From: Escherichia coli
GTDB lineage: Bacteria > Pseudomonadota > Gammaproteobacteria > Enterobacterales > Enterobacteriaceae
Reading direction: 5' to 3' (one strand)
Length of the DNA: 64,000 nt
Assembly: GCF_048403405.1 (NCBI RefSeq)
Contig: NZ_CP183129.1
Shown here: piece by piece, positions 36,062 through 36,135 of the stretch
Layout: each line of letters starts with the position of its first letter
Numbering within the stretch: position 1 is the first letter of the stretch
Translations under genes and position numbers: made by a program
Notes under the pieces: generated by a model
What the model was told of the DNA's origin: nothing
Seen by the model: only the letters and a program-made list of their open reading frames with translations
The model's database searches: none

Positions 36062-36089
36062 TCAGATTCGTTTTATAGCGCGAAGTTCC
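36062..36089 (-). promoter_or_regulatory. Sigma-E (sigma-24) promoter of degP
   Basis: On the degP strand GGAACTT (-35), a 16-nt spacer, then TCTGA (-10), about 45 to 70 nt upstream of the degP start; matches the sigma-E consensus. Confidence 0.8.
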
Positions 36090-36110
36090 GAACTAAAGTT
36101 TCTGCAAAAG

Positions 36111-36135
36111 GTAAAAATTTATTGTTCGTCTTTAC
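36111..36135. promoter_or_regulatory. Putative CpxR-binding repeats upstream of degP
   Basis: GTAAA ... TTTAC pentamer pair (GTAAA-type CpxR half-sites) just upstream of the sigma-E -35. Confidence 0.4.

Follow-up and report, generated by a model that had tools for sequence, protein, structure and literature searches.

The degP locus and its genomic setting

The region under study separates dgt from degP in the 64-kb stretch of E. coli DNA that was analysed, referred to here as the window. The open reading frame assigned to degP (htrA), which encodes a periplasmic protease, scored 935 bits against the NCBIfam DegP equivalog NF008189 (cutoff 720), and the open reading frame downstream of it was identified as CdaR from the ORF list and NCBIfam. 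The upstream neighbour, dgt, encodes a dGTPase and is transcribed in the same direction; the coordinates of all features are collected in Table 1. A 501-nt query spanning the region matched many complete E. coli genomes at 100% identity, with the annotation dgt followed by degP, and 5424 E. coli genomes carry the annotation degP for the locus. Along its full length the window is collinear with K-12 MG1655 (217,822 to about 156,300) at 97-98.5% identity, which rules out a foreign or rearranged locus. The sequence is native chromosomal DNA of an E. coli strain other than K-12. Between the dgt stop codon and the degP ATG, two adjacent bases in the promoter spacer (36081-36080) constitute the sole difference from MG1655. 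The earlier claim that the sequence is native is thus borne out by the DegP open reading frame, by the collinearity with K-12 and by the near-identical intergenic region.

Collinearity with K-12 also gives approximate positions for other genes of the envelope-stress pathways. The gene for NlpE, a Cpx-activating lipoprotein, lies at about 1673-2383, and rseP-bamA-skp, a gene cluster belonging to the sigma-E pathway, at about 16700-21100 on the minus strand, so that several envelope-stress genes are found within 35 kb of degP. The window departs from K-12 at a few places. The nlpE-yaeF intergenic region (1649-1673) lacks about 170 bp of its length in K-12, and positions 32562-32690 hold about 128 bp where K-12 has about 840 bp; the phosphodiesterase gene yaeI, located between dapD and yaeH in K-12, appears to be missing from the window strain. 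The yad fimbrial region at 59361-64000 (the yadN, yadV and htrE side) is strongly diverged from K-12, with 77% identity in yadN and no megablast match beyond it, compared with 97-98.5% identity in the remainder of the window. Two small RNA families gave Rfam matches above their gathering scores on the minus strand, namely CssrA (137 bits, 26856-26965), which lies between rpsB and tsf, and t44/tff (83.5 bits, 27804-27890), upstream of rpsB.

Table 1. Features of the dgt-degP region. Positions refer to the window, distances given as negative numbers refer to the transcription start at 36056, and column identity is the agreement with the window across 76 non-Escherichia species.
Feature	Position	Strand	Column identity	Basis and remarks
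degP (htrA) CDS, 474 aa	34592..36016	-		ORF list; NCBIfam NF008189 DegP equivalog; ATG at 36016
5' UTR with HtrA fourU RNA-thermometer homologue	36011..36056	-	0.79 (5' UTR)	Rfam RF02700; UUUU 36049-36046; Shine-Dalgarno GAGA 36029-36026
Transcription start (A), 40-nt 5' UTR	36056	-		Cappable-seq K-12 180844, score 41.6
Discriminator			0.48	
Sigma-E -10 element TCTGA	36062..36066	-	0.94	Sequence; exact in 63/76 other species
16-nt spacer CGCGCTATAAAACGAA	36067..36082	-	0.79 (whole spacer)	Sequence; holds TATAAA (36077-36072) and the 2-bp K-12 difference (36081-36080)
Sigma-E -35 element GGAACTT	36083..36089	-	0.97	Sequence; 7/7 against published consensus
Linker, 21 nt	36110-36090		0.62	
TTTAC pentamer (GTAAA on + strand)	36111..36115	-	1.00 (76/76 exact)	-59 to -55; ends AAATTTTT tract
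Conserved upstream block TTTGTAAAGACGAACAATAAATTTTTAC	36111..36138	.	0.92 (mean)	-82 to -55
Catalogued CpxR site degP1, GTAAAGACGAACAAT	36121..36135	-		PMC9600279 Table S1; -79 to -65
GTAAA pentamer	36135-36131	-	1.00 (76/76 exact)	Sequence; opens GTAAAGACGAACAAT
7 nt after dgt stop codon			0.30	
dgt (dGTPase) CDS, gene upstream of degP	36146..37663	-		ORF list; NCBIfam NF003429, 894 bits; K-12 annotation
Weak start site inside dgt, 215-nt 5' UTR	36231	-		Cappable-seq K-12 180669, score 1.8 (PMC4782308)
Second catalogued CpxR site degP2, GTAAATTACCGTCAG	36271..36285	-		PMC9600279 Tables S1 and S2; inside dgt

Architecture of the sigma-E promoter

The degP strand carries GGAACTT-N16-TCTGA 45 nt upstream of the degP ATG (36016), and the promoter region as first annotated extends from the last base of TCTGA (36062) to the first base of a GTAAA pentamer (36135). 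When both strands of the window were searched, this pattern occurred only once, where dinucleotide-preserving shuffles predicted 0.01 exact matches per window, or 0.18 with one mismatch. The relaxed pattern GAACTT-N15-18-TCNNA gave 3 matches in the window against 1.65 expected; the other two (48702 and 55837) are on the plus strand, lie within chance and were discarded. The presence of the motif upstream of degP, as proposed in the initial annotation, is borne out; it is unique in the window, and its orientation and placement are correct.

The mapping of 28 start sites with 5' RACE has yielded a consensus for sigma-E promoters that comprises a -35 element GGAACTT, a -10 element TCAAA, a 15-19 nt spacer showing a strong preference for 16, a discriminator of 5 or 6 nt, a gap of 25-28 nt from the -35 element to +1 and a purine start (Rhodius et al., PMC1312014). 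The degP promoter displays a 16-nt spacer, a 5-nt discriminator (AGAAC), 26 nt between the -35 element and +1, and an A as the start base. The description of this promoter as a textbook match holds for the -35 element, identical at all seven positions, and for the 16-nt spacer, but only 3 of the 5 positions in TCTGA (T, C and the final A) agree with the -10 element of the 28-promoter consensus. The older sigma-E consensus, GAACTT-N16-TCTGA, was drawn from degP/htrA and rpoH P3, and the textbook likeness is thus partly circular because these promoters supplied the consensus themselves.

Conservation was assessed with a protein-guided scan using one genome per species, which recovered 80 degP loci from genera including Salmonella, Citrobacter, Enterobacter, Klebsiella, Kosakonia, Buttiauxella and Mangrovibacter. 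A sigma-E motif, defined by at most one mismatch in the -35 element, an N16 or N17 spacer and TCnnA, was present in 76 of the 79 usable loci from other Enterobacteriaceae species. The three loci in this set of 79 that lack the pattern all belong to Buttiauxella, and one of these (L052) retains GGAACTT with a shifted or altered -10 element. TCTGA itself is exact in 63 of the 76 non-Escherichia species aligned for column identity, with TCTTA or TCTCA in most of the remainder.

The two bases that distinguish the window from K-12 fall within the spacer, which on the degP strand reads TTCGCGCT in the window (GC at 36081-36080) and TTCAGGCT in K-12 (AG). Over 100 nt that include these bases, 4034 of 5424 complete E. 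coli genomes (about 74%) share at least 99% identity with the window; for 1390 others, K-12 (98%) among them, identity lies in the range of 95-99%. Other genera have CGCGCT or AGCGCT at the variable point. As the allele of the window is the commoner and agrees with the other genera, the K-12 form looks derived, and the allele of the window is apparently the common, ancestral form.

Transcription start and stress induction

Cappable-seq data for K-12 contain a single strong start site between dgt and degP, at 180844 on the plus strand with a score of 41.6 (Ettwiller et al., PMC4782308, supplementary file 1). Through the K-12 alignment this site corresponds to window position 36056, which lies 26 nt beyond GGAACTT and is the sixth base past TCTGA; the Rfam match to the HtrA thermometer begins at the same position. 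The initial annotation had expected a start about 7 nt downstream of TCTGA and held that a start elsewhere would speak against the promoter; with the K-12 start at the sixth base, within the published sigma-E geometry, the assignment survives this challenge. The start of Salmonella htrAp3, which gives a 40-nt 5' UTR, corresponds to position 36056 as well, and in one study it was detected solely under stress.

Published expression data document induction of degP by both envelope-stress pathways. Overproduction of sigma-E raised degP 56-fold, and degP is a core member of the sigma-E regulon and one of the 60 promoters of the sigma-E library. In a cpxA24 background degP rose 26.6-fold, and with pNlpE it rose 32-fold, induction dropping to 6.4-fold when cpxR was absent (PMC9600279). 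One study saw no induction of degP when CpxR alone was overproduced, and explained this result by the dependence of the promoter on sigma-E. These experimental data all come from K-12 or Salmonella, and the window strain carries the 2-bp spacer variant. A full-text literature search with the promoter sequence retrieved only a knockout primer in a Chlamydia paper.

CpxR sites and the inverted pentamers

The catalogued box GTAAAGACGAACAAT is listed for degP at 105 nt upstream of the ATG, with De Wulf et al. 2002 as its source (PMC9600279 Table S1). The GTAAA that opens this box and the TTTAC pentamer stand in inverted orientation to each other, 15 nt apart and 20 bp from centre to centre, and so do not form the direct repeat of a canonical site. 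Nowhere else in the window does GTAAA-N15-TTTAC occur. The single pentamers are abundant, with 164 occurrences of GTAAA or TTTAC in the window, and two or more are present in 4.7% of 129-nt segments; the pentamers alone are within chance expectation and are not statistically distinctive. Matches to the canonical GTAAA-N5-GTAAA with up to two mismatches numbered 78 in the window, where 46 were expected. They do not include the box at 36135-36121, because its second half, ACAAT (GTAAA-GACGA-ACAAT), has three mismatches.

Statistical support for the CpxR pentamers thus derives from conservation, each pentamer being exact in all 76 species, and not from motif counts. A symmetric 25-bp GTAAA-N15-TTTAC module, and not the core promoter, appears from the alignment to be the most conserved part of the region. 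Both pentamers, being invariant, are under stronger constraint than the core promoter. The block in which they lie averages 0.92 in identity, whereas the 7 nt on its dgt side reach 0.30 and the 21-nt linker on its degP side 0.62. The initial annotation had described GTAAA/TTTAC pentamers of the kind bound by phosphorylated CpxR immediately upstream of the sigma-E promoter. Both are present, and the GTAAA pentamer belongs to a catalogued CpxR box; the two are however inverted, and TTTAC is covered by none of the catalogued CpxR sites found in the literature. The literature search yielded nothing usable on the partner holoenzyme of CpxR or on mutations of the CpxR site in Citrobacter degP, and we infer both the bases contacted by CpxR and the holoenzyme that it helps. 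It is quite unlikely, in our estimate, that CpxR binds in a non-canonical inverted arrangement or with contacts to the alpha subunit, or else targets a sigma-70 promoter interleaved with the sigma-E promoter through TATAAA.

Alternative readings of the upstream block and spacer

One alternative for the CpxR part holds that CpxR acts not on the sigma-E promoter but on an overlapping sigma-70 promoter with TATAAA (36077-36072) as its -10 element. Transcription would then begin near 36063, about 7 nt upstream of the sigma-E start. Relative to that new start the CpxR block would span about -72 to -48, and each stress pathway would have a promoter of its own, interleaved with the other. Across the 76 species TATAAA has an identity of 0.90, the remaining parts of the spacer reaching 0.76 and 0.69, although sigma-E spacers are reported to show very low sequence conservation; the same report describes a central A/T enrichment of these spacers, which could partly account for the conservation of TATAAA. 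Salmonella htrA has a second start with a 47-nt UTR, 7 nt upstream of its sigma-E start, to which such a promoter may correspond, but the K-12 Cappable-seq list holds no counterpart, its only entry for the intergenic region being 180844 with nothing at 180836-180838. No good -35 element precedes TATAAA, as expected of an activator-dependent promoter, and separate sigma-E and CpxR promoters are known at psd. Between 35800 and 36500, a simple scan for sigma-70 promoters and terminators yielded nothing promoter-like on the degP strand and only a weak terminator-like site on the opposite strand, and a strong stand-alone sigma-70 promoter was rejected on this basis. The interpretation offered for the missing response of degP to CpxR alone, namely sigma-E dependence, also argues against a separate sigma-70 promoter. 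On this evidence an interleaved sigma-70 promoter is improbable; were it the real target of CpxR, E. coli degP would have a two-promoter design.

Another possibility concerns TTTAC, which together with the preceding part of the AAATTTTT tract (-64 to -55) might serve as an UP element for the alpha subunit of RNA polymerase and not as a CpxR half-site, leaving the GTAAA box at 36135-36121 as the sole CpxR target. A/T-rich UP sequences are indeed a feature of sigma-E promoters and contain conserved elements near -48/-49 and -57/-58 (PMC1312014), and the only catalogued intergenic CpxR box stops at 36121 and does not include TTTAC. The constructs of the sigma-E library (-65 to +20) take in the AAATTTTT tract. 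TTTAC is exact in all 76 species whereas the preceding AAATT has an identity of 0.91, a sharp boundary that is easier to reconcile with a specific protein contact than with a general A/T tract. On the other strand TTTAC reads GTAAA, a CpxR half-site, 20 bp or about two helical turns from the first GTAAA. An UP element in place of a half-site is a somewhat doubtful proposition, and the two readings of TTTAC are compatible with each other. A third explanation, that the motifs arose by chance and play no part in regulation, draws on the commonness of the pentamers in the window, but it is effectively refuted by the rarity of the exact sigma-E pattern, by its position and orientation, by its coincidence with a mapped start and by its conservation across genera; its probability is close to nil. 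Neither the interleaved sigma-70 promoter nor the UP element alters the identification of the degP promoter. Nothing contradicts that overall identification, and its weak points all lie in the CpxR part.

The degP leader and its fourU thermometer homologue

The degP leader matches the Rfam HtrA thermometer model RF02700 with 77 bits against a gathering score of 52, the match covering model positions 1-46 of 46. The HtrA fourU thermometer was characterised in Salmonella, and temperature control has been shown in that organism only. At 36025 the U of Salmonella and of the consensus is replaced by C in the E. coli copy, creating an A.C mismatch in the lower stem. In contrast with the Salmonella hairpin, with a predicted stability of -5.8 kcal/mol at 37 C, the E. 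coli hairpin reaches a predicted -3.0 kcal/mol and does not surpass shuffled sequence (z = 0.69). According to the same predictions, about 58% of the Shine-Dalgarno sequence is unpaired at 37 C in E. coli and 4% in Salmonella, the corresponding ranges from 20 to 45 C being 52-63% and 0-13%. By these predictions the E. coli copy would not be strong enough to mask the ribosome-binding site, and temperature sensing by the E. coli leader is a putative property.

Upstream elements inside dgt

A second CpxR box, GTAAATTACCGTCAG, is catalogued 255 nt upstream of the degP ATG, again with De Wulf et al. 2002 as its source (PMC9600279), and differs from the GTAAA-N5-GTAAA consensus by two mismatches. 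The box is situated at -54 to -40 relative to the weak start at 36231. The 215-nt UTR of this weak E. coli start is equal in length to that of Salmonella htrAp1. The third-codon positions of TATTAT (36244-36239) are conserved. Cross-genus comparison of dgt revealed no conservation of the degP2 box beyond coding constraint, third-codon-position identity dropping from 0.76 to 0.17 across the box, with a gene-wide mean of 0.47 for dgt. The weak start inside dgt could be a CpxR-assisted sigma-70 promoter. For the region as a whole, the motifs listed in the initial annotation were found; it had missed the thermometer homologue, the TATAAA in the spacer, and the CpxR box and start inside dgt.

Model for degP control and comparison with known systems

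The region is almost certainly the native, already characterised regulatory region of degP (htrA), controlled by sigma-E and CpxR. The motifs, their geometry and conservation, the start site, and the induction by sigma-E and Cpx come from the present analysis or from the retrieved data. In the proposed mechanism, RNA polymerase carrying sigma-E (RpoE, ECF sigma-24) would recognise GGAACTT as the -35 element and TCTGA as the -10 element, 16 nt apart, and would transcribe from the A at 36056 to yield an mRNA with a 40-nt leader. Phosphorylated CpxR on the block at -82 to -55, which comprises GTAAAGACGAACAAT and the inverted TTTAC, would raise transcription further. Through sigma-E recognition and CpxR stimulation, degP would thus answer both envelope-stress pathways. 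The leader, as a homologue of the fourU thermometer of Salmonella htrA, may add an effect of temperature on translation.

That sigma-E and CpxR control degP was established in the late 1980s and the 1990s, and the region therefore reveals nothing biologically new. Its value is mainly that of a positive control, in which a reading of raw sequence placed an experimentally mapped stress promoter to the base. This supports the view of the window as native chromosome and the ability of the first-stage reading to recognise genuine regulatory motifs. Of modest interest are the pentamer pair, with its stricter conservation than the core promoter, the conserved sigma-70-like TATAAA in the spacer and the thermometer copy with its predicted weakness.

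The comparison with the published degP promoter that the initial annotation had proposed supports its reading. The K-12 promoter shares its -35 and -10 elements, their spacing, the start position and the catalogued CpxR box with the window, and departs from it only at the 2 spacer bases. Salmonella htrA has the same -35 and -10 elements, the same 16-nt spacing, the same 40-nt leader and the same GTAAA...TTTAC block. A further likeness exists with psd-mscM, where, as at degP, both envelope-stress inputs converge on one gene and regulatory sites lie within the upstream gene; degP is not mentioned in PMC8138132. Whereas degP may rely on a single promoter or on two interleaved ones, the two inputs at psd-mscM have been shown to use two separate promoters.
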